Shown: positions 17,588 to 60,536 of the stretch, in pieces
Position numbering within the stretch: position 1 is the first letter of the stretch
Layout: each line of letters starts with the position of its first letter
Source: an uncultured Oscillospiraceae bacterium
GTDB taxonomy: Bacteria > Bacillota > Clostridia > Peptostreptococcales > Anaerovoracaceae
Assembly (NCBI GenBank): GCA_964370025.1
Contig: CAYJGJ010000004.1
Span: 6,216 to 70,215, forward strand
Direction of reading: 5' to 3'
DNA: 64,000 bases
The notes under the pieces: generated by a model
The model's input: only the letters and a program-made list of their open reading frames with translations
The model's database searches: none
What the model was told of the DNA's origin: nothing
Made by a program: the position numbers and the translations under genes

Positions 17588-17651
17588 TTGAAGCAACTGT
17601 GTCTACTTAACATACATTAAAAAAGTGGAGTCTTATATTTTAGGAGAATAT

Positions 17652-19079
17652 ATGGATATTAGTTTAGGTGAATTTTATATAAAAATGGTTGAAAAATTAA
17701 GCGTGCTTAATGATGAAGGGGTATCGAAAGACAATTTCTTAAGTGACATATGTACGTATTTTGATATTTCCCATGCTTTTATTTATGAATCAAATTATAA
17801 AGGGGAATTCGAGAAAAAGGAATATTTTGAAACTACTAAAGACAACCATCTGCAAGATAATATTGATATTAAACTTCAACTGGGATTAGAAATATTTAGC
17901 GAACTATGTTCGAGGAAAGTAGTTATCAATTCTTGTGATTCAATATGGAATGAATTAGACGAAAAAATATCGGGAGTATTTAACTTTAATACTCTTGTGC
18001 TGATCCCAATATTGAATCAACACTTTGAATTGGCGGCTTTTGTTGGTGTCGGTGACCGTAGAAAGAAGGCTAGACATGCTTCGGCAGAGATTAATAATGT
18101 ATGTTCATTACTAAATTTATTGGCAAACAATGTTAAGCTCGAGATGTTTAAAAAAGGAATGGCAAATACTGAGGCTGCACTTTCTAATGTTCTTGACCAT
18201 ATTGGAATAGATATATATGTGAATGATTACTATACGCATGATATATTATATACTAACAAATCAATGGCGGCCCCATATGGGGGCATCGAAAATATGATAG
18301 GAAAAAAATGTTGGCAGGCGATTTTCGATGACAAAACTGAACCATGTGAGTTTTGCCCACAACCCAGATTACTTGATGAAAACGGAAACCTCAGTAAGAC
18401 ATATGAATGGGACTATGAGAGACCTTTTGATAAATCTTGGTTTAGAGTTTTGAGTTCATCTTTTCCATGGACCGATGGAAGAATTGCCCATTTAGTCGCA
18501 AGTATAGATATAACAGAGAGCAAGCGAAATCAACTGTTAATAGAAAAACTCGCACAATTTGACTACCTTACTGGACTTCCGAATAGAAGGAGTCTTCACG
18601 ATGATATACAGATGTTTAGTACAGATCATACCAAGTTTGCTGAGAGTTGGTATGTATTGTTTTGCGATCTTGATGGATTTAAATCTGTAAATGATACGCT
18701 GGGACACGATGCAGGTGATGTCCTTCTAAAAGGAATAGCGTCGGAACTTCAAAAAATGTCAAATGATGAATTAAAAGCATATAGGCAAGGTGGCGACGAG
18801 TTTGTTATTATATTAAAAGATCAGAATTCCGTGGAATACTTAAAAAATGTAATTGATGACTTGTTCAAGGTTTTTAGAAAAAAATACATATATAAGGGAA
18901 ATAAAATGGGTTGTGATTGCAGTATTGGAGTAGCAAATTTTCCGTTCGACGCGGATGATTCAAAAAAAATATTGATTCTAGCAGACATGGCAATGTATAG
19001 AGTGAAAAAAGAAGGACGAGGAACGGTCCGATTTTATAAGAATGATAAGTTTATTACTATGGAAGAATATTTCGAGTAG
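17652..19079 (+). CDS. GAF-PAS-GGDEF diguanylate cyclase
   Basis: AGGAGA RBS before ATG 17652. GAF-like N-terminus, PAS with C-x11-C-x2-C (KKCWQAIFDDKTEPCEFCP), LTGLPNRR and RQGGDEF active-site motif. Confidence 0.85.
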   Translation: MDISLGEFYIKMVEKLSVLNDEGVSKDNFLSDICTYFDISHAFIYESNYKGEFEKKEYFETTKDNHLQDNIDIKLQLGLEIFSELCSRKVVINSCDSIWNELDEKISGVFNFNTLVLIPILNQHFELAAFVGVGDRRKKARHASAEINNVCSLLNLLANNVKLEMFKKGMANTEAALSNVLDHIGIDIYVNDYYTHDILYTNKSMAAPYGGIENMIGKKCWQAIFDDKTEPCEFCPQPRLLDENGNLSKTYEWDYERPFDKSWFRVLSSSFPWTDGRIAHLVASIDITESKRNQLLIEKLAQFDYLTGLPNRRSLHDDIQMFSTDHTKFAESWYVLFCDLDGFKSVNDTLGHDAGDVLLKGIASELQKMSNDELKAYRQGGDEFVIILKDQNSVEYLKNVIDDLFKVFRKKYIYKGNKMGCDCSIGVANFPFDADDSKKILILADMAMYRVKKEGRGTVRFYKNDKFITMEEYFE

Positions 19080-19119
19080 AAAAAATTTATATAAACAAGT
19101 GGAATCTACATTTATTTTA

Positions 19120-19149
19120 TTGCTCAAACCTCGAATATCGTGATATAAT
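19120..19149 (+). promoter_or_regulatory. Candidate promoter (TTGCTC-18 nt-TATAAT with upstream TG) for the sensor GGDEF-EAL gene
   Basis: TTGCTC 19120-19125. TGATATAAT 19141-19149 is an extended -10, about 35 nt upstream of ATG 19183. Confidence 0.4.
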
Positions 19150-19182
19150 AAATTATAATTTATTATGGGGGAATAAACGGAG

Positions 19183-21384
19183 ATGAAAAATAAAAAAACG
19201 AGTAATTATATACTTATCATTTTTCTGATAGCAATAGTGGGTGCTAATGTACTTGCTATTATTTGGTTTAATAATACCGTTTTTTCTCAATTAGAAAGTA
19301 GTGCAAAAGAATCACTAAAAGATATGGCGACTGAAGAACAACGAATAGTTTCTCTTTTGCTTAACAATAAGGAAACAGGGGTAATCAGCATAGTTGATTC
19401 TATAGTTCAAATTGGCAATTCGACGGAACAACTCATGTACTATATGCCGATGTGGGAAGAGAGATTTCAAATCGACAATCTCATACTGTCTGATATGGAA
19501 GGCATAGGGATAACTTCAGATGGAAAAGTAGTCGACATTTCTTCTGGTTCTTTTATAGAACTTGCAAAAACAGGGGAGCGAGCAATTACTAACCTTTATA
19601 TATCCGAAGTATCAGGAGAAACAGTACTAGCACTGTCTGCTCCAGTATATTATGAAGGTACAGTCCAAGCTATCGTTGTTGCTGAGTATACTGTCGGTAG
19701 TTTAACAAATTTATTGATTACATCTACAGATAGCAGGGGCTATTCGATGATTCTTAATAGAAACTCGGAAATCCTAGTTCACACTTATCCTTTTGACATT
19801 TCGTTTGAGAATTTTGTGGGGGCGGAATTTGAAGATTCCGTAACTTATCAGACAATTTTAGATGATTTTGCTAATTTAGAAAGTGGAAGTGCAACTTTTT
19901 CCATAGATGGAGATAGGAAGTTTTCAGAATATATACCGCTAGGAGTAGGTGAGCTTATGCTATTTTTTGAAAGTTCCGAAAGTGAATTGAGCGGAGCTGC
20001 AAGCGGCATTACAGGTGCAATGATAAGTGTAAGTATTAGTTTAGGGGTTGTGTTTTTACTGTTAATTGGATATATCTTGTGGAGCAGGCGCGATTCTATA
20101 AGAAAAATTGAGGAAGTAGCATATTTCGATGAACTAACAGGGTTGCCTAATCAAGTAAAATTTAAATTAGATGTTACTAAGATGTTACAGCAAAGTGATA
20201 TCGATGCAAGTAAATATGTGTTGATAAAATGTGACATATCTAATTTTAAAGCGATTAACGAAGTCTACGGATTCGATATAGGCAATGGTGTTATTACATC
20301 TATGGCTAATACAATACGATCTTTAAGCTCAAACAAAACTAAGGTTGCAAGAGTAGGCACAGATGAGTTTTTGCTTTTTGGAGAAAATCAAAGAATTGAA
20401 GAGAAACTGATAGTTGAAAATGCGATTCAACACGGCTTGATTGAAGATGTTCCAGAAATAAAAAAACATATGTTTAGTTTTAGATATGGAAGATATTATG
20501 TAGAACTTGGCGAAAATAGTATAGATGATATGATAAGCAAAGTGAGCATGGCACATAGTTATTCAAAATCTGAACGAGGTATGGCGATATGGAATTACGA
20601 TGAAATATTTAAAAAGCATTTAATACATCTTACTGAGATGACAAATAAAATGCGAGAAGCACTTAATAATCATGAATTCAAGTTATTCTTGCAGCCCAAA
20701 TATAGGGTATCAGATGAAAAAATAATCGGAGCAGAGGCTTTGGTCCGTTGGATTGAACTTGATGGTAAAATGAATTTTCCTGGTGAGTTTTTGCCTTTAT
20801 TTGAAAAGAATGGTTTTATATTGCTACTTGATAAATATATGTTTGAGCGTGCTTGTGCATTTATTAAAAAAAGGATTGACGAAAATAAGACGTATGTTCC
20901 AATTTCTGTTAATTTTTCAAGAAAGCACTTTGAAAACCCTAATTTTGTGGATGAACTATTGGAAATAGTAAATAAGTATCAAGTTCCTATCGATATGCTA
21001 GAAATAGAATTGACTGAAACAACTATTATAGAAAATGAATCCAATGTGAAACACAAGCTTCAAGAGCTCAGAAGCGTTGGTTTCTGTGTATCTGTCGATG
21101 ATTTTGGATCTGGCTATTCATCATTGGGCATGCTAAAAGATTATAAAGTGGATGTGATTAAACTCGATAGAAGCTTTTTCGTACAAGATGATGAAGATGA
21201 ACAGGGAAACACAGTAGTTGAGGGAATAGTTTCTCTTATAAATAATTTAGGTCCCAAAATTATCGCAGAGGGCATTGAAACAGCTGAACAAGTAGAGTTT
21301 CTTAAAACTGTAAACTGTTATGCAATCCAGGGATATTATTATGCTAAACCTATGATTTGCGATGAATTTGAGGGATATATTTAA
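19183..21384 (+). CDS. Membrane sensor (Cache-like periplasmic domain) with degenerate GGDEF and EAL domain
   Basis: N-terminal TM, about 270-aa extracytoplasmic domain, second TM. LTGLPNQ...RVGTDEF (GGDEF degenerated to GTDEF). EALVRW, ELTET, DDFGSGYSS, KLDRSF, EGIET, QGYYY. Confidence 0.85.
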   Translation: MKNKKTSNYILIIFLIAIVGANVLAIIWFNNTVFSQLESSAKESLKDMATEEQRIVSLLLNNKETGVISIVDSIVQIGNSTEQLMYYMPMWEERFQIDNLILSDMEGIGITSDGKVVDISSGSFIELAKTGERAITNLYISEVSGETVLALSAPVYYEGTVQAIVVAEYTVGSLTNLLITSTDSRGYSMILNRNSEILVHTYPFDISFENFVGAEFEDSVTYQTILDDFANLESGSATFSIDGDRKFSEYIPLGVGELMLFFESSESELSGAASGITGAMISVSISLGVVFLLLIGYILWSRRDSIRKIEEVAYFDELTGLPNQVKFKLDVTKMLQQSDIDASKYVLIKCDISNFKAINEVYGFDIGNGVITSMANTIRSLSSNKTKVARVGTDEFLLFGENQRIEEKLIVENAIQHGLIEDVPEIKKHMFSFRYGRYYVELGENSIDDMISKVSMAHSYSKSERGMAIWNYDEIFKKHLIHLTEMTNKMREALNNHEFKLFLQPKYRVSDEKIIGAEALVRWIELDGKMNFPGEFLPLFEKNGFILLLDKYMFERACAFIKKRIDENKTYVPISVNFSRKHFENPNFVDELLEIVNKYQVPIDMLEIELTETTIIENESNVKHKLQELRSVGFCVSVDDFGSGYSSLGMLKDYKVDVIKLDRSFFVQDDEDEQGNTVVEGIVSLINNLGPKIIAEGIETAEQVEFLKTVNCYAIQGYYYAKPMICDEFEGYI

Positions 21385-25279: not shown

Positions 25280-27202
25280 ATGAGAAAATACATAGTAATA
25301 AGACTTGTCTTGTTAGTACTTGTAATTGGTGGACTAATCATATCTGTTGGTGCATATATTATGTATCAAGAGGCGCAGTCAGGATTTGAGCAAGAAGCTG
25401 TTGAGCAAATATCACAGATTGAAGATATTTTGCAAGAAAATGAAGAATCGGTAGCAGAGTTACAAGAAGATTTGAAAGATGACTTCTTAATTCGAGCTCA
25501 TGCTGCAGCTTATATTGTGCAAAATAACAAAGATGTTATATTTGATATTCAGCAATTAGATTATATAGTTTCGCTTCTTCAAGTAGACGAAATCCATTTT
25601 TTTAATCACGATGGCATAATTTACAGTGGCAATATTCCTGAATATCATGGAATATCAGTTTATTCTGGCGGACAAATTGCGTTTTTTGCACCTATGTTGA
25701 ATGATTACGATTTAGAGCTTGCACAGGATGTTACCCCAAATACAGCAGAAAAAAAAGATATGCAGTATGTAGCGGTGTGGAGTGAAGATAGACAACACAT
25801 AGTTCAGATAGGTATTGAACCAGTACGACTACTAGATGAAATGATGACTACGGATCTTTCTTTTATATTTTCTCGTCTTACACCTTCTATGAATACAATG
25901 TCATTTGCCGTCGACTGTACGAGTGGCGAAATAATTAGCAGTACAAACATGACAGTTTTCGGTGAAACACTGTCAGATATTGGAATGTCAAATTTTAATA
26001 GTTCAGATGTCGGAAAACTTCAAAATGCAGTTATCGATGGAGAACAAGGATATGTTTATTTTAAGCAACATTCAGAAGATATATATATCGGATTTTATAG
26101 AAATGAAACATCGATATATGATTCGACGATGGAAGCTCTTTCCAATATGGCACATATAGCTTTGCTTATTTCTTCTGTTATTATTGTCTTGGTATATTTC
26201 CTATTAAATCAAACAGTTCTCCGGGGTCTTTCTAAAATAGAAGACGGCATGAAGACGATTTCTGAAGGAAATTTAGAATACAAAATGGATGTTAGTGGGC
26301 TGCCTGAGTTTAAGTCTTTGAGTAGTAATATTAACTTTATGGTAAATCGTGTGCTTGAAACGTCAGGAAAGTTTTCCATTATTTTTGAATATGTTAATAT
26401 GCCTATTGCTATGTATGAATGTAATGAACAGGCGGTGGTTGTAACAGGTAAGATGTCAGAGATATTTGAAATTTCCGAAGAACGTTTTTCACAAGAACTA
26501 AAATCGCCTAGCGATTTCATGAAGTTTATTGAAGAAATAATGGCACGACGCCATCCAAGTGAAAATGATTTGTATATTTATCCAGCTGATTCTGGTGATC
26601 GATTCTTAAAAATACTGCGGCATCAAGACGGAAGCAGTGATTGGGGATTAATCATAGATTCCACAGAAGAAATAGTCGAAAAATATACCATCAAGCAAGA
26701 GCGCGATTTTGATTTTCTTACAGGTCTTTACAATAAAAGATCTTTCTTTGAACAAGTGGAGGCCCTTTCTCTAAAAGAGGACGAAGTAAAGAAAGCTATA
26801 ATAGTAGTTTATGATTTAGATAATTTGAAGTACGTCAATGACACATGGGGACACGATACAGGTGACGCATTTATTAGTGCAGCGGCTAGTGTTTTAAAAG
26901 AATGCACGTATGAACATAAGATGTGTTCTAGACTTAGCGGTGATGAATTCGCAATGGTTCTTTATGCTTCTGATGATTATCTTCAATTGGAGCAACAGCT
27001 AGAAAAAATTAAGGAAGATTTCAAAGCTTCATATATAGATACGCCAGACGGAAAAGGTCATAGAGTTAGCGCATCTATAGGATATTCTCTTTACCCTGAA
27101 CATGCAAGTGATTTCAGAACTTGCATTACCTATGCAGATAAAGCATTATATGTTGCAAAAAGTAAGGCAAAGGGGAGTATTCAAAAATACATTCCGAAGT
27201 AA
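25280..27202 (+). CDS. Membrane sensor diguanylate cyclase (extracytoplasmic domain-HAMP-PAS-like-GGDEF)
   Basis: Two TM segments flank a roughly 260-aa domain, followed by a HAMP-like segment. LTGLYNKR, NDTWGHDTGD and RLSGDEF (SGDEF variant), then a C-terminal KGS motif. Confidence 0.85.
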   Translation: MRKYIVIRLVLLVLVIGGLIISVGAYIMYQEAQSGFEQEAVEQISQIEDILQENEESVAELQEDLKDDFLIRAHAAAYIVQNNKDVIFDIQQLDYIVSLLQVDEIHFFNHDGIIYSGNIPEYHGISVYSGGQIAFFAPMLNDYDLELAQDVTPNTAEKKDMQYVAVWSEDRQHIVQIGIEPVRLLDEMMTTDLSFIFSRLTPSMNTMSFAVDCTSGEIISSTNMTVFGETLSDIGMSNFNSSDVGKLQNAVIDGEQGYVYFKQHSEDIYIGFYRNETSIYDSTMEALSNMAHIALLISSVIIVLVYFLLNQTVLRGLSKIEDGMKTISEGNLEYKMDVSGLPEFKSLSSNINFMVNRVLETSGKFSIIFEYVNMPIAMYECNEQAVVVTGKMSEIFEISEERFSQELKSPSDFMKFIEEIMARRHPSENDLYIYPADSGDRFLKILRHQDGSSDWGLIIDSTEEIVEKYTIKQERDFDFLTGLYNKRSFFEQVEALSLKEDEVKKAIIVVYDLDNLKYVNDTWGHDTGDAFISAAASVLKECTYEHKMCSRLSGDEFAMVLYASDDYLQLEQQLEKIKEDFKASYIDTPDGKGHRVSASIGYSLYPEHASDFRTCITYADKALYVAKSKAKGSIQKYIPK

Positions 27203-42799: not shown

Positions 42800-44332
42800 A
42801 TGCCGGAAGTTTCATATAAGGAGAAAATAGTAGTACTTGATTTTGGAGGGCAATATGCACAGTTAATTGCACGAAGAGTTCGCGATTTGAAAATTTACTG
42901 TGAAATAAAATCATATAAAACAGACCCTGAACAGTTGAAGGAATACAAGGGTATAATTTTCACAGGTGGACCTAATTCTGTTTATCTCGATGAGTCACCA
43001 AAGTGCTCGAAACAAATCTTTGAAATGGGAGTTCCTATATTAGGAATTTGTTATGGTGCGCAATTAATGGCGCACATGCTCGGTGGCGAGGTTAAATCTG
43101 CAATAAATAGGGAATATGGAAATTGTGAAGTCGTTTTTGAAAATAATTCTAAGGTGACATTTGGAAAAAGTGTTACCTGGATGAGTCATACGGATTATAT
43201 CTATAGTTTACCTGAAGGATTTAGGATTACGGGTATGAGCGAAGGATGTTCTTGCGCATCGATGGAAAATGAAGAAAAAAAACTGTATGGTATGCAATTC
43301 CACCCCGAGGTAGAGCATAGCGAAAGTGGTAATGAATTTATAAAGAACTTCCTATATGATATATGCGGTTGTCAGGGTGATTGGCAGATGAAATCATTTG
43401 CAAATACAACCATAGAAAATATTCGAAATCGAGTAGGTGATAAAAAAGTTCTCTGTGGACTTTCGGGAGGCGTAGATTCTACGGTTGCGGCAATGCTAGT
43501 CCATAGAGCAATAGGTCAGAAGTTGACTTGTATTTTTGTCGATCACGGAATGTTGCGAAAAAATGAAGGTGATATGGTAGAGCGAGTTTTTAAAAATGAG
43601 TTCGAAATGAATATTATTAGAGTAAATGCACAGGAAAGATTTCTACAAAGACTTGAAGGGATAATCGATCCTGAGACTAAGAGAAAAATTATCGGAGAAG
43701 AATTTGTTCGTGTGTTTGAAGAGGAAGCTAATAAACTTGGTGAATTGGATTTTTTATGCCAAGGAACAATATATCCTGATGTTGTAGAAAGTGGAGAAGG
43801 TGAGGCAGCAGTAATAAAAAGTCATCACAATGTAGGCGGACTTCCAGAAGAGATTGGATTTGGGGGAATCCTTGAACCATTGAGAGATTTATTCAAAGAT
43901 GAGGTAAGAAAAGTCGGGATAGAGCTTGGTATTCCCGAAAACTTAGTTTGGAGACAGCCATTTCCAGGTCCTGGATTGGCAGTGCGAATCATAGGAAATA
44001 TTACACAGGAGAAAATAGCTCTTTTGCAGGATGCAGACGAAATATTTAGGAAAGAGATAGCAAATTTTGGTCTCGAAAGGAAAATCAATCAATATTTTGC
44101 TGTCCTTTCTGGAATGAAGACAGTAGGAGTAATGGGGGACGGTGGCATATACGCAGAAACGATTGTATTAAGAGCTGTAACTACAAGTGATTTTATGACA
44201 GCTGACTGGGCAAAGCTGCCATATGACTTAATGGAAAGAGCCTCTAATCGAATTACCAATGAAGTAAAAGGGGTCAGTAGAGTTCTTTATGACATAACAT
44301 CTAAACCTCCATCTACCATCGAATTCGAATAG
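42800..44332 (+). CDS. guaA: GMP synthase (glutamine-hydrolysing), full length
   Basis: GATase GICYGAQLM and HPEV, ATP-PPase SGGVDS, C-terminal PPSTIEFE. Length 510 aa. Confidence 0.95.
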
Positions 44333-49370: not shown

Positions 49371-50669
49371 TTATTCCCACTCAATCGTGCCTGGTGGCTT
49401 AGGTGTAATGTCATATACAACTCTATTCACTCCGTTTACTTCCTCTACTATGCGGCAAGCAAGTTTATTTAGGAGCGGATAAGGAAGCTCAGCGATTTGT
49501 GCAGTCATTGCATCGCTTGAATGTACTGCGCGAATTGCTATTGCTTGTCCGTACGTTCGAGCGTCATCACTTACTCCTACAGATAGGCATCCTGGGCATA
49601 ATGCAAAAAATTGCCATATCGCTCTTTCCAGCCCCGCCTTAGATATTTCATCGCGCAGAATATAATCTGCTTCTCTTACCATTTCTAATTTTTCACGTGT
49701 AATTGCTCCTACAACACGCACGCCGAGCCCTGGGCCGGGAAATGGTTGTCTCCATACTTGTTCGGAAGGCAATCCTAACGTTTCGCCTACTTTACGTACT
49801 TCGTCTTTAAATAGCCATTTTACTGGTTCAAGAAGTTCGAAGTCTATATCCTCTGGCAATCCACCTACATTGTGATGTGATTTCACTACACCTTTTTTTG
49901 ATTCGCTTTCAATAATATCTGGGTAAATCGTTCCTTGTACAAGGAAATCCATTTTTCCAAGTTTCTTTGATTCTTCTTCAAATACTCTTATGAATTCTTC
50001 TCCGATTATTTTTCTCTTTGTTTCGGGATTATCTACTCCCTCCAATTTATTTAAGAATCTATCTACAGCATCTATGCTGATCAGTGGAATTCCAAATTGT
50101 TTCGCAAATATTTCATTAACTAATTCCGGTTCACCTTTTCTCATGAGGCCATGATTTACGAACATACAAGTAAGTTGATTTCCTATTGCTTTGTGTACAA
50201 GTGCTGCACAAACTGCACTATCAACCCCTCCGGAGAGTGCGCATAAAACTTTTTTATCTCCTACTGTCTGTTTGATGTTATTGACTGTGTCTTCGACGAA
50301 TGCTTCTATAGTCCAGTTGCAGGAAAATGCATTGGAATCGATAAATTCTCTAATATCTTTTTCACTTTGTGTGTTTCCGAGTCTAAGCAAAGAAGATTGT
50401 GAAAATCCGAGTGTAGCCAATGATGCGACGAAGTTATCTACGTCGGATTGGGGAATGGAGGAGAAATTACTCGATGTGTTATCCGCAACGTCTGTTAATT
50501 CGTCATCGCCTATTAAAACGATTGCCCTCGGGCTCAGTACTTTGATTTTTTTAAGGCATCCTTCGATCGGTGTAACTTCACAGTAAACGTTGCTTTCTCT
50601 TACGATTTTCGCAACTTTTTGGTTGTTATGTGCACCAAAATCTACTATTAGTAATAACTCTTTTTGCAT
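49371..50669 (-). CDS. GMP synthase paralog: intact ATP-pyrophosphatase and dimerisation domains, vestigial GATase domain
   Basis: SGGVDS P-loop, [21 protein letters not shown]-terminal PPGTIEWE. The roughly 125-aa N-terminus keeps [20 protein letters not shown] but lacks the GICYG cysteine and the HPE histidine/glutamate. Confidence 0.8.
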
Positions 50670-51115: not shown

Positions 51116-51982
51116 TTATTTATTTTTCATTGTTACGAATAAAATCTCGGGATTGTTAAATACTCTGATAGGAATAATGCTATTCCCAAGTCCCCTACTT
51201 ACAACCATGCTTGTGTTTTCTTCCGTATACATGCCTTCTGTGTAGTCAGGGAAGAATCCTTGGTTAGGTGCATACAGGGGACCTATTATAGGTAGTATTG
51301 CCTGTCCGCCATGAGCATGTCCTGAAAAAACCATATCTATATTATTTTCAACATAAATATCGAATAGCTCGGGGCGATGTGATAGCAAAATTTTAAAATT
51401 ATCACTTTCTGACCATTCTTCAAGGAGGGTTTCTATATCTACTGTACTATATTCGTCACTGTTTTCCTCCGTTGTAAACCCAGGGTCTGATAATCCTAAA
51501 ATATCTATGTAATCATCAATTCCAGTTGAAATAGTTATGGATTCATTATCAAGTACGACTACGCTTGCTTCTGTAAGTGTCTTTTTAATTTCATCGTATT
51601 TCCCAGACCAAGCTTCATGATTTCCAGAAACGTAAAAGATAGGAGCAATTCTAATTGCACTATTAATGAATTCCATTGAGGTATCCAAGTCATAGTTTCG
51701 ACGGTCTATCAAGTCACCAGTGATTACGATTATGTCGGGCGAACCAGCATACACTGCATCAAGCAATTCCTGCTGTTCGGCACCAAATTCCGCATTGTGC
51801 AAGTCAGAAATATGACAAACAACAAGCTCGTCGAATCGTTCTGGGAAGTTTTCATTTATATATTCTATTTCTGTTATTTGTAAAACAGTGTTTTGTTGCA
51901 TAATATAAAAAGCAAGGCCTGCGATAAGGATTAAAGGCACAGCAATAAATATAATTATTTTGTATTTTAGTAATTTTTTCAT
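51116..51982 (-). CDS. Membrane-anchored calcineurin-like metallophosphoesterase (YkuE/YaeI-like)
   Basis: N-terminal TM. HISDLHN, TGDLID, GNHE, SGHAHGGQ motifs. Confidence 0.8.
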   Translation of the reverse strand: MKKLLKYKIIIFIAVPLILIAGLAFYIMQQNTVLQITEIEYINENFPERFDELVVCHISDLHNAEFGAEQQELLDAVYAGSPDIIVITGDLIDRRNYDLDTSMEFINSAIRIAPIFYVSGNHEAWSGKYDEIKKTLTEASVVVLDNESITISTGIDDYIDILGLSDPGFTTEENSDEYSTVDIETLLEEWSESDNFKILLSHRPELFDIYVENNIDMVFSGHAHGGQAILPIIGPLYAPNQGFFPDYTEGMYTEENTSMVVSRGLGNSIIPIRVFNNPEILFVTMKNK

Positions 51983-52270
51983 ATTGATCGGTCATCTTTT
52001 CTCTTTTTACGCATATAAAACAGGATGGAAGGGATGTTAACTGAGTCATCCTTTCCGTATAAAACATACGGAGCCATTTAGTGTAAATCACCAGATGAGT
52101 TTATTAGCGCATTTGCTATAATATAATTATTTATGTCTTTAATATCAAGTAATCTTGGTAGATTATAACATATTAGCTATTATAAGTAAATTGCTTAAAT
52201 ATGGATTTATTTTATTTTTTGAAAAGATGAGAAATAAAATAAAAATTAGATTTATAAGAAATCGTATAAA

Positions 52271-52296
52271 GTCGAATACTGTCGAAATTTGTCGAA
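52271..52296 (+). promoter_or_regulatory. Three tandem Spo0A-box-like heptamers at 10-bp phasing
   Basis: aGTCGAAtacTGTCGAAattTGTCGAA: GTCGAA at 52271, 52281 and 52291. Two copies are perfect TGTCGAA (0A-box consensus TGNCGAA). A -10-like TAGAAT lies at 52333-52338 with a poor -35. Confidence 0.6.
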
Positions 52297-52390
52297 CGAT
52301 TTTTATGGACTATTTGTTGAAATGGTGTATATTAGAATCATCAGATGGGGCTTAATGCATCAACTATGTTGGGAAATGAGGTGTAAAATT

Positions 52391-52735
52391 ATGAACGGGA
52401 AAATAGCAATTATAAGTCGGACTTCCAGTACAGTCGTAGATCCAAACGATGTGCTTTTTATAGAAAGTTATTCGCGGAAGGTTAATGTTGTTACAGTAAA
52501 TGGGACATATACGCAATATGGTCAACTCGGTAATATTCGCGAGGTGCTTGATGAAAAATTTTGTTGGGTCCTAAAAAACAAAACAATCAATTTGGACATG
52601 GTAAAGGAGGTGAAAAATGGTGTAATCATATTCAAAAATGACGAAAAGATGATACTGGCCGATTTGGCGTTCAGGAAAGCAAAACAAGGATACAATAAGT
52701 ACTTGAGAGAAACACCTAGTAATTACTTTATATGA
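52391..52735 (+). CDS. Stand-alone LytTR DNA-binding domain protein (no receiver domain)
   Basis: 114 aa. VLFIESYSRKVNVVTVNGTYTQYGQLGNIREVL...FCWVLKNKTINLDMV matches the LytTR fold pattern. GAGGTG lies before ATG 52391. Confidence 0.7.
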   Translation: MNGKIAIISRTSSTVVDPNDVLFIESYSRKVNVVTVNGTYTQYGQLGNIREVLDEKFCWVLKNKTINLDMVKEVKNGVIIFKNDEKMILADLAFRKAKQGYNKYLRETPSNYFI

Positions 52736-52771
52736 ATTGGATATATTCTATATAGAAAGGAAGGAATTCTC

Positions 52772-53350
52772 ATGCACAAGATAAATAAGGGAATTAATAT
52801 TAATCTTCCATATGAACAAGTGGCTTCAATGGGTAAATTATTCTCGGAGTGGAAGAAGAATAATAATGATGAAATTAACTTAATTATCGTGCTAAATCCT
52901 GACGAAATAATCAGAGAGAGATTTAAATTTTTTAGCAATATTATATTTATTACTTTTGATTACAGCGAAAATGATATAGAATTACTTGTAGAGGACTATA
53001 GTAAAAACATAATTGACTATGAAATTCAGCGTATAGGTATTGCGTCTAATTCCAAAGGGTATAAATATTTAAAGGAAGCAGTCAAGCTTGTTTTAAAAGA
53101 TCCGGAGCTTATTTCGGCAATGACCAAGGAGTTGTATCCGACTATTGCCAAAATGCACAGTGTTTCTTCCAATAGTGTGGAAAAGGCAATTAGAACGTCA
53201 ATAAATGTGGCATGGGGGAAAGGTTCAACATTTGAAAATTCACTGGTAAGCGAGGAGTTATTTTATTTTGTTGTAAAACCGAAAAACTCTGAATTGATTT
53301 CTGTAATAGCTGAGAGAATTCGTTGTAACTACGCTAGCAGTAAAGGATAA
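52772..53350 (+). CDS. Spo0A C-terminal (effector/DNA-binding) domain protein lacking a recognisable receiver domain
   Basis: IASNSKGYKYLKEAVKLVLKDPELISAMTKELYPTIAKMHSVSSNSVEKAIRTSINVAWGKG is collinear with the Spo0A effector domain (HIKGY.YLR.AI...ITK.LYP.IAK....SRVERAIRHAIEVAW). The roughly 85-aa N-terminus is too short for a receiver. Confidence 0.7.
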   Translation: MHKINKGININLPYEQVASMGKLFSEWKKNNNDEINLIIVLNPDEIIRERFKFFSNIIFITFDYSENDIELLVEDYSKNIIDYEIQRIGIASNSKGYKYLKEAVKLVLKDPELISAMTKELYPTIAKMHSVSSNSVEKAIRTSINVAWGKGSTFENSLVSEELFYFVVKPKNSELISVIAERIRCNYASSKG

Positions 53351-53454
53351 TTATTGATAAAATTAACTTGTAATGTTGTTGCTCTCAATCAGCAAATTGC
53401 ATGTGAAGAAAGGAGTGTATTTGGGGATATCTACGCCTTAAATACGTTGAAAGA

Positions 53455-54201
53455 ATGGAAAAATTAATTTCGTGGGGAATTTTTGAAAATGAAATTAGTG
53501 CATATTCGAGCACTAGAGTAATTGGGAATCTATCGCTAATGAGCGATCCAAGTGAAACCACTGTAAAAAACATCAAAGCAATGTCAAAACTTGCAAATAT
53601 TCCTACTTCAAACTTAGTTGGATGTAATCAAACTCATTCTACTAACTTTCACAAGGTCACGAAGACGGATATTGAAAATGGCGGATATATAAATGGATGT
53701 GCCGTTGAAAACTGCGATGCATTGTATACGGATATTGCTAATGTGGGTTTGATGTCTTTTCATGCAGATTGCACCCCAGTTTTATTATATGCACGAGACA
53801 AAAAAATCATTGGTTCTATACATGCTGGTTGGAGAGGAACTGTTGATTGTATCACAACTAAAATGGTTAAGCACTTGATCGATGTGGAAATATGTAATCC
53901 CGACGAAATTTATGCTTATATTGGTCCTGCAATATCGAAAGAAGCTTTAGAAGTGAAAGATGATGTCATTGATTTAGTAAAAAAGATGCCTTTTGATACA
54001 ACTCCATATTATCAAAAAAATGCTGATGAATCATATTTTCTTGATTGCAAGGGGTTGAACATACTGCAATTATTGTGTTGTAATATTCCTAAGCCCAATA
54101 TACTATTAAGTCAGTATTGTACATTCTTCGATAATGAATATTTCTACAGCCATAGGCGCGGAGAATCTGAAAGATGTGCTTCCTTTATAGCTCTGAAATA
54201 G
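53455..54201 (+). CDS. pgeF: YfiH/PgeF (DUF152) purine-nucleoside phosphorylase / peptidoglycan editing factor family
   Basis: NQTHS, ADCTPVLLY, HAGWRGT, and C-terminal CT..D..FYSHRR motifs. Confidence 0.85.
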   Translation: MEKLISWGIFENEISAYSSTRVIGNLSLMSDPSETTVKNIKAMSKLANIPTSNLVGCNQTHSTNFHKVTKTDIENGGYINGCAVENCDALYTDIANVGLMSFHADCTPVLLYARDKKIIGSIHAGWRGTVDCITTKMVKHLIDVEICNPDEIYAYIGPAISKEALEVKDDVIDLVKKMPFDTTPYYQKNADESYFLDCKGLNILQLLCCNIPKPNILLSQYCTFFDNEYFYSHRRGESERCASFIALK

Positions 54202-54292: not shown

Positions 54293-54550
54293 AAGTTGTA
54301 AATTATAAAGGTGAGATACGAAATAGTCTTACTTACTAATTTTAGTGCCTATTATAATAGATATATTTTTGAATATATGGTATAATCAGAAATAATCAAA
54401 ATAATCAACAGAAAGTAACAAGAAACTTCATTCTGCTTTGAATTAAAGTGAAGGTTGTAATAAAGATAAAAAATGCGAAGCTCAGCCGATAATGTATAAC
54501 ATATTGAGCTTTAGTCGAGATTTTTTATTGCATAAGTGAGAGGTGAACAA

Positions 54551-57500
54551 ATGAGTGAGAACTATACTAAGGAAAAAGGATTTAGCCATAAGTTCAAATC
54601 TATTATCGATGCGACTCCGCTTTGTCTCAATCTATGGAATTATGAGTTAAAAAATGTACTATGCAATAGACAGGTAATGGCCTTGTTTGATTTGAAGAGT
54701 GAACAGCAGTATATTGATGAATTTTTTAATTTGTCTCCCGAATATCAACCTAATGGAAAATTAAGTAGTACGCTGGCACAAGAGCAGATAAAAAAAGCAT
54801 TTTCGGAAGGCTATAACAAATTTAAATGGTTGCATTGCAAATTGAATGGGGAAGAAATACCTTGCGAGATTACATTGCGAAGAATTAAAATCTCTGATGA
54901 TGAAGATTATATAGCTGGATTTACCCGAGATTTACGAGATGAACTTATGGGAAGTTCCTATGTCGAAGAATACGAAAACTATTTTTTGAATAGAATTTCA
55001 GAAAGAACTTTGTTTAATAAAATTTCTGAAATATCAAAGGAGTGGTATTTTTCTTACGATATTCGTACATCTTTAATTAGATTTTATGGTAGTTACGAAA
55101 GAACTTCCAACAGAGATTATTTCCCACTTAATGAACCTCTTAAAAAGGGGAAAGTCCACGAGGAAGATGCAAACTTATATTTAGAACTCATGGAAAATAT
55201 GAAAAAAGGTGTGTATGAACCCCTTGACATCAGGTATTTGCAACCTAATGGGGCGTATAGATATTATAGATTCGTATATCAAACTGTAAACGATCCAAAT
55301 GGTGATCCAGTATTTGTTGTCGGAAAAGGTGCCGACGTCCATGAACAAAAAACCTTAGAAAGGCGCTCTAGGATCGATTTGCTCACTGAGTGTTACAACA
55401 AGAACGCTGCGGAATACATAATTGCTGAAAAAATGATTGAGATGAAAAACGATGAATTTGCATTGTTTTTTATAGATATAGATAATTTTAAGACAATAAA
55501 TCACAATGTGAGCCATCATTTTGGCGATGAAGTATTAAAGAATATTTCAAAAAGCATTAAATCTATATTTAGAAGTGATGATATAATTGCGAGAATCGGT
55601 GGCGATGAGTTTATCGTTTTTACGACTAACCCAGGTAACAAGAAAGTGTTGGAGAAAAAAGCAAAAAGCATTGTCGATATGCTTAACACATCTTACAAAT
55701 ATGATGATATAGAATGTCCACTTTCGGCAAGTGTTGGAATTGCAAGGCATTCGGCTGGGAATTCGTACGATGACTTATATAACGCGGCTGACCAAGCTTT
55801 GTATAATGCTAAAAAAGCTGGCAAAAATAGATATTCGTTTTACGATAGCTCCATGGAAGAGGGCACAATCGGAGAGTTGACTAAATTGGATAATTCCAAT
55901 AGAGTGACGGGCGCAATACTCGACTATGAGTTAGTTACAGAAGTTTTTGATATTTTATATGATGAACGTTACAATCTCACTGATGCTGTCAATCTTTCGT
56001 TACAATACATAGCGGATAGATTTAATGCCGATCGAAGTTATATCTTCGAAACGTTCGATAATGGAAAGACATATGACAATACATATGAATTTTGCAAAGA
56101 AGGAGTTACTGCGGAGATAGGTAACCTTAAAGGAATTGATAGAGAAGTTCTCCAAGAGTTTTTTATAGAAAACAAGAATGGTATTCTATACTCTAATGAT
56201 CTAGCGGCTACTTTCAAACAAGAAAATGCCTACAAGTTGATGGCGGATCAGGGGATTCGTTCTTTTGCCCATGCGCAAATTAGAAAAGATGGATATGTAA
56301 CAATCTTTTTGGGGCTTGATGACTGTACAAAAGCTAGGATATGGAGTGATCGCGAAATAAATAGTTTGCAATATATAGTAAAAATAATGTCTATATTGCT
56401 TAAAAGTGCGCATATGCAAAACTCGCTGAGTGAACTCGGAGAATATAATAGAACTACCATGCATATTTCTGCTATGTCCGAAGAGTTATCATACGTCTCG
56501 GATGTCGACACCTATGAATTGTTGTATATAAATAGGGCAATGCTCAATGTGTTAGGCAATCCACCTGAGAGCGTATGGAAAGGTGGAAAATGTTATGAAC
56601 TTCTTCAAGGAAAAACTGAACCTTGTGATTTCTGTACAAACCACTTACTAAATGAACACACCTCGTATGAGTGGTCAATTCATAATGAACTGTTTAATAA
56701 AACTTATCTTTTGAAGGATAAGCTCATACCTATTGGCGGAAGACTTGCAAGACTTGAAACCGCTACTGATATTACGAAACTTAGCGAGCTTGAGAACACG
56801 TTAGTTGAAAAACTGGAGGAAGAAAGGCTTCTTACAACTTGTATAGCAGAGCTTCACTCGGATGAAACTCCCAAAATATCAATCAGTAATATACTAGGAC
56901 ATATATCGAAATATTTTTCTTCCGATAGAACAGTGTTGTTCCAAATATCAAAAAATGGAGAACATTTAAATAACACTTACGATTGGTGTTCTGAGGGATT
57001 CCACTCTCGTATAGATGAGTTGCAAACGATATCTATAGAAAATACGCGAAAACTATTAGACAAAATAAAAGAATTCAATCAATTCTATGAGCCTTCCGTG
57101 GAAGACGCTTACTCGAGCAACGATGCTGAATATAAATGGTTAAAATCGCTAGGAGTTGAACATTTCATTGCATCATCAATCAAGGATATCGATGGAAATG
57201 TAACAGGCTTTATTGGTATAGAACACCCAAAAGCTAGCACTGATAAAATTTGGATTTTGGAGTCTATATCTAAGTTTGTAGAAAATTTCCTAAATAAAAA
57301 TGAGCTGATATCGTCGTTGCATAGACTTAGTTATTATAGTAGTTTAACGGGGATTTACAACCGCCAAAGTTATATCGATGCAATATCCGAAGTAGGAATT
57401 CAATCTTCAACATCTTTGGGGGTTGCTCATATAAATATAAATAAGATGAGAATAATAAATATTACTCATGGTTTAGATTTTGGTGACGCAGTGATCAAAA

Positions 57501-58528
57501 AAGTTGCGGAACTGTTAACATCGCTGTTTGGAAAGAATGTCTATCATACTGCTGGCGATGAGTTTGTTGTAGTATTGAAGAATGAAGATGAATTAGAATT
57601 TGACAACAAGATAAATAAGGCAAAAAACCTCTTTGCTGACCAAAAGGACTTTACGGTCTCTATTGGGTATGCTTGGAATAAGAATACTGTTACTAGAAGA
57701 GAAGAAAATATTTCAAAATCAGACAACACCTTAGAATTAACAACTCAAGGATATACAACAATATTGTCTGAAAACTTAAAGAGAGAAATAATTGAAGGTA
57801 AATTTGTAGTCTTTTTGCAACCGCAGATAGAAATGGCTACAGGACAATTTACTAGTGCAGAAGCTTTAATAAGAAGAAAAGATGCAAAAGGAAATATACA
57901 ACCACCTGTTACGTTTATTCCTTTTTATGAAAAAGAAGGAGCTATTGCGCAAATTGATATGTTTGTACTTGAAACTATTTGTAAGTTGTTTTATGAATGG
58001 GAGCAAAAAGATATTAATAAGCAAATGCAGGTGTCTGTTAATTTCTCGCGACATACGATAGCAAACAAAGGAATTGTCGATTTGATTTGTTCTGTATGTG
58101 ATAAATACAATACTGATAAGACACGCTTGGTTATTGAAATTACAGAAACAGTAAACAGCGTAGATGATGCGTCGTTGTCCGAAATCGTTTCGAAATTTAC
58201 CGGTGCAGGATTTAAAGTATCGTTAGATGATTTTGGTAGCGGACATTCTAATCTATCGTCTCTCAGGTTGTCTCATTTCGACGAGATTAAAATCGACATG
58301 GGCATAGTATGTGAATTGCCACAAAGTCAACGATCAATGATTCTTACAGAAAATGCTCTAAATCTCTGCAGCATGTTAGAAGATGTAGTATCGGTTGCCG
58401 AGGGAATTGAAACTGTTGAACAGTACAATGTGCTTAAAGAATTAGGATGCAATAAAGGGCAAGGTTACTATTTCGATAAACCAATGCCTATAAAACGATT
58501 TGAAGAAAAATATATTAAACAAAAATAA
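54551..58528 (+). CDS. Giant cytoplasmic c-di-GMP protein: PAS-PAS-GGDEF(active, I-site)-GAF-PAS(Cys motif)-GAF-GGDEF(degenerate)-EAL
   Basis: RSDD-x5-GGDEF at the first cyclase domain, GAF-like blocks, PAS with GKCYELLQGKTEPCDFC, second GGDEF degenerated to TAGDEF. EAL motifs EALIRR, EITET, DDFGSGHS, KIDMG, EGIET, QGYYF. GAGAGGTG lies before ATG 54551. Confidence 0.85.
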   Translation: MSENYTKEKGFSHKFKSIIDATPLCLNLWNYELKNVLCNRQVMALFDLKSEQQYIDEFFNLSPEYQPNGKLSSTLAQEQIKKAFSEGYNKFKWLHCKLNGEEIPCEITLRRIKISDDEDYIAGFTRDLRDELMGSSYVEEYENYFLNRISERTLFNKISEISKEWYFSYDIRTSLIRFYGSYERTSNRDYFPLNEPLKKGKVHEEDANLYLELMENMKKGVYEPLDIRYLQPNGAYRYYRFVYQTVNDPNGDPVFVVGKGADVHEQKTLERRSRIDLLTECYNKNAAEYIIAEKMIEMKNDEFALFFIDIDNFKTINHNVSHHFGDEVLKNISKSIKSIFRSDDIIARIGGDEFIVFTTNPGNKKVLEKKAKSIVDMLNTSYKYDDIECPLSASVGIARHSAGNSYDDLYNAADQALYNAKKAGKNRYSFYDSSMEEGTIGELTKLDNSNRVTGAILDYELVTEVFDILYDERYNLTDAVNLSLQYIADRFNADRSYIFETFDNGKTYDNTYEFCKEGVTAEIGNLKGIDREVLQEFFIENKNGILYSNDLAATFKQENAYKLMADQGIRSFAHAQIRKDGYVTIFLGLDDCTKARIWSDREINSLQYIVKIMSILLKSAHMQNSLSELGEYNRTTMHISAMSEELSYVSDVDTYELLYINRAMLNVLGNPPESVWKGGKCYELLQGKTEPCDFCTNHLLNEHTSYEWSIHNELFNKTYLLKDKLIPIGGRLARLETATDITKLSELENTLVEKLEEERLLTTCIAELHSDETPKISISNILGHISKYFSSDRTVLFQISKNGEHLNNTYDWCSEGFHSRIDELQTISIENTRKLLDKIKEFNQFYEPSVEDAYSSNDAEYKWLKSLGVEHFIASSIKDIDGNVTGFIGIEHPKASTDKIWILESISKFVENFLNKNELISSLHRLSYYSSLTGIYNRQSYIDAISEVGIQSSTSLGVAHININKMRIINITHGLDFGDAVIKKVAELLTSLFGKNVYHTAGDEFVVVLKNEDELEFDNKINKAKNLFADQKDFTVSIGYAWNKNTVTRREENISKSDNTLELTTQGYTTILSENLKREIIEGKFVVFLQPQIEMATGQFTSAEALIRRKDAKGNIQPPVTFIPFYEKEGAIAQIDMFVLETICKLFYEWEQKDINKQMQVSVNFSRHTIANKGIVDLICSVCDKYNTDKTRLVIEITETVNSVDDASLSEIVSKFTGAGFKVSLDDFGSGHSNLSSLRLSHFDEIKIDMGIVCELPQSQRSMILTENALNLCSMLEDVVSVAEGIETVEQYNVLKELGCNKGQGYYFDKPMPIKRFEEKYIKQK

Positions 58529-58589
58529 ATTACAGCAAGCCGTTATCATTACATCTGGTGCAAGTACGCAAATAGTCCCCGAAGGAGGT

Positions 58590-60536
58590 ATGTGGATGGG
58601 TTATAAAAATGATGGAGAACAATCCCAAAATCAAACGGAGGAATCCAAACAAATAAAACATGAGAAAGAATTCAATGATGCATTTAAAGCTATTATAGAT
58701 GCTAATCCACTTTGCTTGAATTTGTGGAATAGGAAAATGGAAAATCTTCTTTGCAATAAGCAAGCGGTATTGCTTTTTGATCTCGAAAGCGAAGACCAAT
58801 ACTTGAAGGAATTTTTCAACTTGTCACCAGAGTATCAACCTAATGGTGTGCGTAGTAGTGAACTTGCTGCGCAGCACGTCGAAAAGGCATTTTCGGATGG
58901 GTATACCAAATTTCGATGGCTACACCAAAACTTAAGAGGAGTAGAAATACCGACTGAAATTATTTTATCCAAGATTCTTGTAGCAGATAACGAGGAGCTT
59001 GTAGTTGGATTTACAAGAGATTTGCGTTCGGAGATATTCGGCAGTGATTCAAATAACGAATACGAAAATTATTTCCTTAACAAAATATCTGATAGAACAC
59101 TGATAGAATGCTTGACAGAGTTGACGGATGAGTGGTTTTTTGCATTGGATACACGTACTTCTATTATCCAATATTACGGGAAGCAAGTTAAAGAATATAG
59201 TGAAAATAACAGTTATTCTATGACATTTGGATCTTTGATTGAACTTGGAATAGTACATGAAGATGACAAAGTGCAGTATGACAAGCTTGTTCAAAATATC
59301 AAGAGGGGGTACTATGAACCAATTGATATTAGATACAAGCAAAAGAATGGAAATTTTAAATATTATCGTTACATGTACCAATCGGTCAAGGATAGCGAAG
59401 GTAATTTAGTATTTGTTGTAGGAAAATCAGTTGATGTACACGAACAAAAAATGCTAGAAGAGCGTTCTAAAGTAGATTGGTTGACAGGATGTTATAACAA
59501 AATGGTATCAGAACACATCGTAGCGGAGATTCTTTTAAAAGAAAGCAACAAACAACATGCCCTGTTTATCGTAGATATCGATAATTTCAAGGCTATCAAT
59601 GATAACCTCGGGCACTACTTCGGTGACGAAGTTTTAAAAGAAATATCGCTAAATTTGAGGCAATCTTTTAGAAATCAAGATATTGTCGCTAGAATTGGTG
59701 GAGATGAATTTACTGTATTTATGTCTAACATTTCTTCGCGTGAAATTTTAGAAGAAAAAGCAGCAAAAATAATGGAGGCATTTAGCAGAACTTATTCAGG
59801 AGAGTACAAAAATTATTCGATTTCTGGCAGTGTAGGTGTGGCAATTTTCCCTGAGGCCGGGAATAATTATGTGGATCTTTACAAGTCTGCAGATAAAGCA
59901 CTTTACGAAGCAAAGATGTTAGGCAAAAACAGATATGTTTTTTACGATGAGTCTTTGATAGATGGTACTATGAAAAACATTACAAAGATTGAAAACGCTG
60001 ACAGGATGGCTGCAGCATATTTCGATTATGATTTAATAAACGCAGCATTTGAAACCCTTTACGATGCTCAAAAGGATCAAAACACAGCAATTGACAATAT
60101 ACTTCAATATGTGTGTAAAAAATACAATATTGACAGATGTTATATTTTTGAAACGAACGATGAGGGAGGGACATATAACAATACTTTTGAACAATGTCTT
60201 CCTAATATAAGCAAAGAAATCGATTCTCTTCAGGGTCTCCCAGGGGAAATGTTTGAGGATTTATTCAGTGAAGCGTTGCATAATGGCATAGTGTATACAA
60301 ATAACTTAGAAGCAATGTTTAAGGCCGAAGGCTCTTATGAAACTATGGCAAATCAGGGCATAAAATCATTTGCTCACGCTCAAGTAAGAAAAGGGGACTA
60401 CGTGTCATTCTTTTTGGGTGTAGATGACTGTACAAAAGCGAGAGTTTGGAGTGAAAAAGAGATTAATACTTTGCAATACCTTTCTAAATTTATCGCACTC
60501 TACCTGCATGGAAACACTTCTCAAGAAAAAAAATAA
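58590..60536 (+). CDS. PAS-PAS-GGDEF-GAF diguanylate cyclase, tandem paralog of the N-terminal half of the preceding gene
   Basis: Collinear, visibly similar sequence (for example FKAIIDANPLCLNLWN...FNLSPEYQPNG, RNQD-x5-GGDEF, GIKSFAHAQVRKGDYVSFFLGVDDCTKARVWSEKEINTLQY). GGAGG lies before ATG 58590. The ORF-track start 58500 overlaps the upstream gene. Confidence 0.85.
   Translation: MWMGYKNDGEQSQNQTEESKQIKHEKEFNDAFKAIIDANPLCLNLWNRKMENLLCNKQAVLLFDLESEDQYLKEFFNLSPEYQPNGVRSSELAAQHVEKAFSDGYTKFRWLHQNLRGVEIPTEIILSKILVADNEELVVGFTRDLRSEIFGSDSNNEYENYFLNKISDRTLIECLTELTDEWFFALDTRTSIIQYYGKQVKEYSENNSYSMTFGSLIELGIVHEDDKVQYDKLVQNIKRGYYEPIDIRYKQKNGNFKYYRYMYQSVKDSEGNLVFVVGKSVDVHEQKMLEERSKVDWLTGCYNKMVSEHIVAEILLKESNKQHALFIVDIDNFKAINDNLGHYFGDEVLKEISLNLRQSFRNQDIVARIGGDEFTVFMSNISSREILEEKAAKIMEAFSRTYSGEYKNYSISGSVGVAIFPEAGNNYVDLYKSADKALYEAKMLGKNRYVFYDESLIDGTMKNITKIENADRMAAAYFDYDLINAAFETLYDAQKDQNTAIDNILQYVCKKYNIDRCYIFETNDEGGTYNNTFEQCLPNISKEIDSLQGLPGEMFEDLFSEALHNGIVYTNNLEAMFKAEGSYETMANQGIKSFAHAQVRKGDYVSFFLGVDDCTKARVWSEKEINTLQYLSKFIALYLHGNTSQEKK

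Follow-up and report, generated by a model that had tools for sequence, protein, structure and literature searches.

The stretch analyzed here, referred to as the window, comprises 64,000 nucleotides of contig CAYJGJ010000004.1 (assembly GCA_964370025.1, positions 6,216 to 70,215 of the forward strand) from an uncultured Oscillospiraceae bacterium. One of its intergenic regions contains an array of three 0A boxes, the motif recognized by the regulator Spo0A, in the same orientation and one helical turn apart; the array precedes a weak promoter and an operon that encodes a LytTR-only protein and a receiver-less Spo0A paralog. Judged from the sequence and its comparison with other genomes, the array is best explained as a Spo0A-type operator (probability about 0.6), at which phosphorylated Spo0A (Spo0A~P) most likely activates the operon and whose boxes the paralog can probably share.

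Sequence and Conservation of the 0A-Box Array

Positions 52270–52299 of the plus strand read aGTCGAAtac tGTCGAAatt tGTCGAAcga, with GTCGAA cores starting at 52271, 52281, and 52291, i.e., with a period of exactly 10 bp that is repeated twice. A first-pass annotation of this DNA had described three GTCGAA copies exactly 10 bp apart, two of them within perfect TGTCGAA heptamers and one within AGTCGAA, and the sequence bears this description out; the start that it gave for the array (52271) holds for the first core, while the full heptamers begin one base earlier (52270, 52280, and 52290). The assignment to the 0A type was also upheld, as the boxes agree with the 0A box known from experiments, including the invariant G2, C4, and G5, the bases that Spo0A is reported to contact specifically (PMC3485338).

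The pattern GTCGAA-N4-GTCGAA-N4-GTCGAA presented one exact match in the window and none in 100 dinucleotide-preserving shuffles, in agreement with the earlier view that such an array is not expected by chance. Single heptamers, on the other hand, are at chance level (12 TGTCGAA compared to 7.8 ± 2.7 expected), and all 10 copies outside the array are located within long open reading frames, as had likewise been proposed for the lone copies; the sole tandem pair of the form TGNCGAA-N3-TGNCGAA in the 64 kb is the one in the array. The degenerate heptamer TGNCGAA was found nearly twice as often in the window as in shuffles (49 vs. 27 ± 4.6), almost always inside genes, which is probably a codon or dipeptide effect; because of this excess in genes, single degenerate 0A boxes are uninformative in this genome. 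Tandem Repeats Finder gave no match in the intergenic region, the array being too short for its score threshold, and a search of positions 51800–53500 against Rfam at a permissive threshold identified no known RNA element, with one chance-level match inside the LytTR gene.

Among 5.8 billion proteins searched, the paralog and the LytTR protein presented one close relative each, P0002 (64% identity) and P0009 (76% identity), respectively. The two corresponding genes are adjacent on one contig of assembly GCA_964367585.1 (locus L001), in the same gene neighborhood as in the window; a metagenome scan with a LytTR alignment yielded no confirmed relative. As one ortholog was found per protein, box conservation could be compared in one other genome only. 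The presence of the boxes at the orthologous locus had been set beforehand as a check, and all three cores are kept in register in this single ortholog, where the intergenic region reads, at the same place, tGTCGAAaat gGTCGAAatt aGTCGAAcga. The two genomes are identical at 18 of 18 core bases and differ at position 1 of every heptamer; G2, C4, and G5 are invariant in all six boxes. A candidate further upstream box (aATCGTA at 52260, with two mismatches and a 10-bp shift) was rejected, as it is not conserved in L001. The block from box 1 to just past the −10 region (52270–52343) is 82% identical between the two genomes, as compared to 56% for the synonymous third codon positions in the neighboring LytTR gene and 24–42% in the flanking intergenic DNA, which indicates that the array and the promoter are under purifying selection.

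This comparison also bears on whether the array might be an operator for another direct-repeat regulator, such as a CtsR-like protein, or a functionless short tandem duplication, both of which we regard as very improbable. The CtsR operator of low-GC Gram-positive bacteria, GGTCAAA-nan-GGTCAAA, is a direct repeat of the heptad (A/G)GTCAAA with a 10-bp period and thereby has the same architecture as the array (tandem heptads, a 3-bp spacer, and a location in the promoter region), differing by one base per core; however, the core is GTCGAA and not GTCAAA in all six boxes, the genes downstream of the array are not clp or heat-shock genes, which are the CtsR targets, and the CtsR operator is a repressor site that overlaps the promoter. 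A tandem duplication might be suspected because many high-GC matches in the genome scan described below are plainly unrelated tandem repeats, but the complete conservation of the core bases, well above the level at synonymous sites, argues against a neutral repeat, as do the spacers between the cores, which differ between the two genomes (tac/att vs. aat/att) and indicate that the array is not a product of recent slippage.

Promoter Context

The array is located in a 408-bp intergenic region, with a leftward metallophosphoesterase gene on one side and the two rightward genes of the operon on the other (Table 1). A promoter scan selected TGGACT-16-TATATT; the hexamer TATATT overlaps a second −10 candidate, TAGAAT, which is equally conserved, and the −35 is poor whichever of these candidates is taken. 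The elements reported at first pass, TAGAAT at 52333–52338 and a poor −35, TATTTG (52311–52316), are present at these positions, and the activator-dependent architecture then proposed fits a weak −35 that begins 9 bp past the end of box 3. With TATATT as the −10, the three boxes span roughly −71 to −45, on one face of the helix and directly upstream of the polymerase, which corresponds to an activator-type layout. The same 9-bp gap between last box and −35 is present in unrelated promoters with good hexamers (TTTACA-17-TATAAT at L033; a −35 of TTGCAA at L125), and this recurrence supports the promoter assignment in the window. The “cgatt” flank of box 3 also recurs behind such arrays in other genomes, including those at genuine spo0A genes, and another array locus, L025, presented TAGAAT at the equivalent place.

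A repeat search revealed a degenerate fourth 0A-like box, TGTTGAA, in the promoter spacer; that it represents a weak repressing site is possible, if speculative. A σH-dependent promoter, considered on the basis of the GAAT in TAGAAT, was rejected, as no AGGA-type −35 is found at the right distance. On the plus strand, neither the gap between the two genes of the operon nor the sequence that follows them contains a predicted intrinsic terminator.

Table 1. Coordinates of the 0A-box array, of the features surrounding it, and of related arrays at comK-family genes (window positions unless a locus is named).
Feature	Position	Strand	Remarks
0A box 1	52270..52276	+	AGTCGAA, position 1 off consensus; TGTCGAA in L001, core identical
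0A box 2	52280..52286	+	Perfect TGTCGAA; GGTCGAA in L001, core identical
0A box 3, promoter-proximal	52290..52296	+	Perfect TGTCGAA; AGTCGAA in L001, core identical
Spacer cgattttta, 9 bp	52297..52305	+	Conserved; between box 3 and −35
Weak −35-like hexamer TGGACT	52306..52311	+	From promoter scan; TAGATT in L001
Degenerate fourth 0A-like box TGTTGAA	52315..52321	+	From repeat search, in promoter spacer; L001 has TGTCAAA here
−10 region TATATTAGAAT	52328..52338	+	Overlapping candidates TATATT (52328–52333) and TAGAAT (52333–52338); identical in L001
LytTR-only gene, 114 amino acids	52391..52735	+	First in operon; Pfam PF04397, E = 2e-10
Receiver-less Spo0A paralog gene, 192 amino acids	52772..53350	+	Second in operon; Pfam PF08769 (Spo0A_C), E = 7.6e-28, residues 84–183
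Metallophosphoesterase gene	51116–51982	−	Left neighbor of the array
Divergent σ70-type promoter TTTACT-17-TGtTATAAT	52162..52190	−	Strong, conserved; faces the metallophosphoesterase gene, ~80 bp from the array
Two GMP-synthase-type genes	49371–50669; 42800–44332	−; +	
comK-associated arrays	L017 reverse complement 4951–4976; L022 1197–1222; L084 2504–2529; L106 4944–4969; L119 6008–6033		

The Operon and the Receiver-less Spo0A Paralog

The operon had been annotated as encoding a LytTR-only protein and a protein consisting mainly of the Spo0A DNA-binding domain, and the Pfam matches (Table 1) agree with both assignments. Residues 1–83 of the paralog presented no Pfam match and no match to Response_reg, and this 83-residue N-terminal part is common to P0002 only. 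Residues 84–189 match the PDB entries 1FC3 and 1LQ1 (E = 2e-20), with the domain aligned end to end with the crystallized Spo0A domain; an AlphaFold2 model of the paralog presented predicted local distance difference test (pLDDT) scores of 78–96 over residues 80–150 and scores below 50 in the N-terminal 78 residues. When aligned with full-length Spo0A, the first ~25 residues correspond to the final strand and helix of the receiver (KGINxNLPYEQ vs. GAxYYxxKPFD); with this residual receiver end, the paralog resembles a Spo0A from which the receiver is largely lost. Neither protein encoded by the operon has a membrane segment (the maximum 19-residue hydropathy of the paralog is 0.73).

Genuine full-length Spo0A is composed of a receiver and a Spo0A_C domain with the canonical SRVERAIRHAIEVAW helix. 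The recognition helix of the paralog, NSVEKAIRTSINVAW, is identical to the canonical helix at 9 of 15 positions (V136-E137-K138-A-I-R141-T-S-I-N-V-A-W148 vs. V212-E213-R214-A-I-R217-H-A-I-E-V-A-W224), with changes that include R214K, R211S, and H218T. E213, R214, and R217 are the residues that we take, from the 2002 crystal-structure paper, to be the base-contacting residues of Spo0A; E213 and R217 are kept in the paralog (as E137 and R141) and R214 is replaced conservatively (K138), suggesting that the paralog can probably occupy the same boxes. The σA-activating stretch of Spo0A, SLFGYTV, on the other hand, is changed to SLVSEEL.

In a representative protein search, 6296 clusters presented similarity to Spo0A_C, many of them short or repeated. 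Many library proteins (P0010–P0026) contain two to four tandem Spo0A_C domains with divergent helices, and one protein of 2242 amino acids contains 19 matched stretches; to our knowledge, this tandem architecture has not been described.

Phased Arrays in Other Genomes

A scan for the pattern GTCGAA-N4-GTCGAA-N4-GTCGAA, carried out on one genome per bacterial or archaeal species, identified at least 120 loci; a second scan, of metagenome contigs with the array and its cgatt flank as the query, identified 13. About 39 of the matches listed from the first scan are intergenic arrays in low-GC Firmicutes. Position 1, which was left free in the search pattern, is T in 104 of the 117 boxes (89%) of the listed Firmicutes arrays, indicating that the recurring unit is the full 0A box TGTCGAA. 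Many of the high-GC matches (e.g., in Gemmatimonadales and actinobacteria) represent unrelated tandem repeats.

Genuine spo0A genes were found behind triple arrays at six of the loci listed in the two scans. One of these genes, encoding a receiver and a Spo0A_C domain with canonical helix, is located directly downstream of the array (L012) and another one gene further downstream (L107); at 4 of the 13 metagenome loci (L124, L131, L132, and L134) the array is located 144 bp upstream of spo0A. In addition, a Spo0A paralog of another kind directly follows a triple array at L102 (473–1330; Spo0A_C, E = 2e-18; helix NWKNVEHAMRSCIHKAY); its receiver is degenerate, with a weak match below the Pfam cut-off. 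A Spo0A_C gene thus lies behind the array at about 7 of the ~50 listed Firmicutes loci, with the window and its ortholog not counted, which is far beyond chance given that a genome has one or two Spo0A_C genes among thousands.

Other arrays are found at comK, kinase, and sipL genes, and the occurrence of the same phased triple arrays at these genes and at genuine spo0A in other Firmicutes independently supports the first-pass reading of the array as 0A boxes, which left open control by genuine Spo0A or by the paralog. Triple TGTCGAA arrays are present at comK-family genes (Pfam ComK, E = 1e-40 to 1e-46) in five metagenome-assembled genomes (MAGs) of low-GC gut Bacilli; these arrays are located 9–59 bp from the gene start, are oriented opposite to the gene, and have a terminator-like hairpin on the far side, a pattern suggesting that comK is under direct control of the Spo0A type in these uncultured Bacilli lineages. 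An interpretation of these gut Bacilli arrays as small transcripts (consisting of promoter, array, and terminator) was dropped, as the adjacent gene on the opposite strand is comK. Multi-pass membrane HisKA/HATPase kinases of ~410 amino acids are located 24–35 bp from arrays at L005 (reverse complement 4964–4989) and L046 (6114–6139), and are possibly orphan sporulation kinases under putative Spo0A feedback; the sporulation gene sipL is also located behind a triple array.

Longer arrays are present at L027 (about 4600–4690), where at least eight boxes end at the start codon of a gene that by eye is UvrB-like, and at L029 (reverse complement 344–389), where five boxes precede genes that by eye are ParA/ParB-like; L089 (reverse complement 59–144) contains more than 10 boxes. 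Two Gemmatimonadales MAGs contain many dispersed 10-bp tandem repeats of the form GTCGAAG(A/G)nG, often with an inverted copy nearby (L009, L011, L014, L015, L018, L028, L041, L048, L050, L064, L075, L094, and others); this repeat appears to be a repetitive extragenic element that has no relation to 0A boxes.

Candidate Regulators of the Operon

In B. subtilis, it is established that spo0A is autoregulated via several 0A boxes (PMC12090719); in C. difficile, the Spo0A domain binds upstream of spo0A, and this binding depends on G2, C4, and G5 (PMC3485338). For the operon in the window, the following account of the regulator, its effect on transcription, and the feedback is inferred from the boxes, their phasing and conservation, the promoter geometry, the domains encoded, and the recurrence of the array. 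As Spo0A~P accumulates at the end of growth, it would fill the three boxes cooperatively; with the boxes in the same orientation and one helical turn apart, the bound domains would be arranged head-to-tail on one face of the DNA, where they could help RNA polymerase to start at the weak promoter TGGACT-16-TATATT/TAGAAT. Activation would lead to the production of both the LytTR-only regulator and the receiver-less paralog, which would place both proteins in the Spo0A regulon. The paralog could then occupy the same boxes without phosphorylation and exert feedback on the operon that encodes it; binding to targets without phosphorylation is known for the isolated Spo0A DNA-binding domain (PMC3485338). 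As the σA-activating patch has diverged in the paralog, competition or damping would be likelier than self-activation, and the box in the promoter spacer could, speculatively, contribute repression when occupancy is high, in the manner of box 0A4 at spo0A.

A wider role of the operon, which we put forward as a tentative and rather doubtful extension, would be that of a phosphorylation-independent side branch: Spo0A~P would switch the operon on, the paralog would serve as a signal-blind competitor or memory at its own 0A boxes and perhaps at those of the whole regulon, and the LytTR protein would be its partner or antagonist. Such a branch would represent a soluble analogue of the LytTR regulator/inhibitor pair, built from a truncated master regulator.

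Several observations weigh against Spo0A as the regulator of the operon. No spo0A or other sporulation gene is annotated in the 64-kb window, which contains housekeeping, nitrogen and purine metabolism, chemotaxis, and cyclic di-GMP (c-di-GMP) genes and is thereby uninformative as to sporulation, and no spo0A is present in 12.6 kb of the contig of the ortholog; a spo0A gene is assumed for this organism because spo0A is present in most Clostridia, including non-spore-formers (bioRxiv 10.1101/2022.02.25.481979). Furthermore, position 1 is T in only three of the six boxes of the window and L001, as compared to 89% elsewhere (p about 0.02), which could reflect weaker Spo0A sites or a different reader with slightly other preferences. 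The array at L025 (1304–1410), which consists of 10–11 boxes, precedes a distant LytTR-only gene (26–27% identity) with no adjoining paralog or other Spo0A_C gene, and the layout of the operon in the window, with the LytTR gene first and the repeats ending 9 bp before the −35, corresponds to that of LytTR-only regulators, which autoactivate through direct repeats located 4–11 bp upstream of the −35 (PMC6193735).

The relaxed position 1 would fit the slightly different specificity of the paralog, if this protein, rather than host Spo0A, were the reader of the boxes and regulated its own operon independently of the sporulation phosphorelay. A Spo0A_C gene follows the array in both the window and L001, the recognition helix differs from the canonical one at the positions given above, and a receiver-less domain needs no phosphorylation (PMC3485338; PMC10294663 argues likewise for phage copies). 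However, we consider exclusive autoregulation by the paralog unlikely: the same arrays, with the same cgatt flank, occur at genuine spo0A genes and at many genes with no paralog nearby, and the motif therefore needs no special reader; L025 combines an array and a LytTR gene with no paralog; and a phosphorylation-independent self-activator would lock itself on unless restrained.

That the LytTR-only protein binds the repeats and activates its own transcription, with the second gene product as a modulator in place of the usual membrane inhibitor, is weaker still as an explanation and in our judgment improbable, yet to be taken seriously. The LytTR regulatory systems of Streptococcus mutans and relatives (HdrRM and BrsRM; PMC6193735) resemble the window in presenting a two-gene operon with the LytTR-only regulator first, direct repeats a few bp before a weak −35, and a predicted positive-feedback layout; in addition, boxes 1 and 3 are 20 bp apart, inside the 20–22 bp period reported for LytTR repeat pairs. 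LytTR sites are, however, pairs of 9-bp repeats separated by 12 bp (range 11–13 bp), whereas the window contains three copies (and L025 10–11) with a period of 10 bp, and a scheme of repeat pairs leaves the perfectly conserved middle box unaccounted for. The sequence GTCGAA is unlike the reported LytTR repeats, such as ACCnCTTAn, and matches the 0A box exactly; the product of the second gene is a soluble Spo0A_C protein instead of a membrane inhibitor; and the spo0A, comK, kinase, and sipL arrays have no LytTR gene nearby.

Comparison with Described Spo0A Systems

The array resembles the 0A boxes of B. subtilis and C. difficile (0A1–0A4 at spo0A, and those at abrB) in its TGTCGAA core, the retention of G2, C4, and G5, and the presence of several boxes per promoter. 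The tandem boxes of abrB, crystallized with the Spo0A DNA-binding domain (PDB 1LQ1), presumably present the same arrangement, with same-orientation neighbors one helical turn apart, a 3-bp spacer, and domains bound head-to-tail. For known 0A boxes, a location upstream of the promoter or overlapping it sets activation versus repression (PMC3485338, PMC12090719, PMC4168254), and the array likewise lies upstream of its promoter. The array is more regular than the promoters of the model organisms, in which a single good box is mostly accompanied by degenerate ones, and also differs from them in its relaxed position 1 and in its targets, as a LytTR-only regulator with a receiver-less paralog is not a described Spo0A target.

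Receiver-less spo0A homologs of gut phages (PMC10294663) are similar to the paralog in that they encode the effector domain without the receiver, implying no need for a host phosphorylation signal. The paralog differs from these phage copies in its chromosomal location within a syntenic housekeeping neighborhood, its divergent helix, its own N-terminal part, and its LytTR partner. Matches in phage databases were considered as receiver-less relatives and rejected; those opened were full-length Spo0A proteins with a receiver, on unverified virome scaffolds. Four records of a phage collection that match the paralog, L135–L138 (GenBank MT835715, MT835781, MT835504, and MT835737), encode such full-length Spo0A on scaffolds of this kind and probably represent bacterial DNA rather than phage-borne truncated copies.

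While 0A boxes, multi-box Spo0A promoters, and receiver-less Spo0A domains (in gut phages, PMC10294663) are already known, the location of the array at a rare, lineage-specific operon of LytTR and truncated Spo0A genes, seen in two genomes, is new, as are the unusual regularity of the site and the marking, apparent from the genome scans, of Spo0A-family and putatively Spo0A-linked genes by phased triple arrays across uncultured Firmicutes. If Spo0A does bind here, the array would be among the cleanest natural Spo0A operators, with three near-perfect boxes in exact helical register at a fixed distance from a weak promoter, and would be a convenient system in which to study the cooperativity of Spo0A binding and the geometry of activation in Clostridia. 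It would also link the master regulator to two poorly understood classes of proteins, receiver-less Spo0A domains (so far mainly from gut phages) and LytTR-only regulators. Control of a truncated Spo0A by Spo0A itself would suggest a layer of feedback or competition on the sporulation or stationary-phase decision. The triple arrays at spo0A, comK, orphan kinase, and sipL genes may serve as a simple sequence marker from which to predict Spo0A regulons in genomes available from metagenomes only, and this by-product of the array scan may be the more general result.

Other Features of the Window

The divergent σ70-type promoter in the same intergenic region is part of the context and is located outside the array itself. 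It falls within a 37-bp island (52159–52195) that is nearly unchanged in L001, reads on the minus strand as an extended −10 promoter close to consensus, and contains a short palindrome, ATATTAGCTAT. Positions 51991–52066 contain short direct repeats (GTCATCTTTTC/GTCATCCTTTC, and two copies of TATAAAACA) located 44–54 bp apart; the ~75-bp stretch holding these repeats is missing from L001 and looks like a duplication or insertion, specific to the window, in the metallophosphoesterase gene leader.

The window encodes a full GMP synthase (GATase and GMP_synt_C) as well as a second protein of 432 amino acids that contains the GMP_synt_C and ATP-pyrophosphatase parts and no glutamine amidotransferase domain; the gene for this amidotransferase-less protein is conserved next to the operon in L001. 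Genes for c-di-GMP turnover are unusually dense, with at least six GGDEF and/or EAL proteins encoded in the 64 kb (16346–21384, 25280–27202, and 54536–60536); two of these proteins are encoded shortly after the operon, where L001 likewise has a GGDEF/EAL gene.

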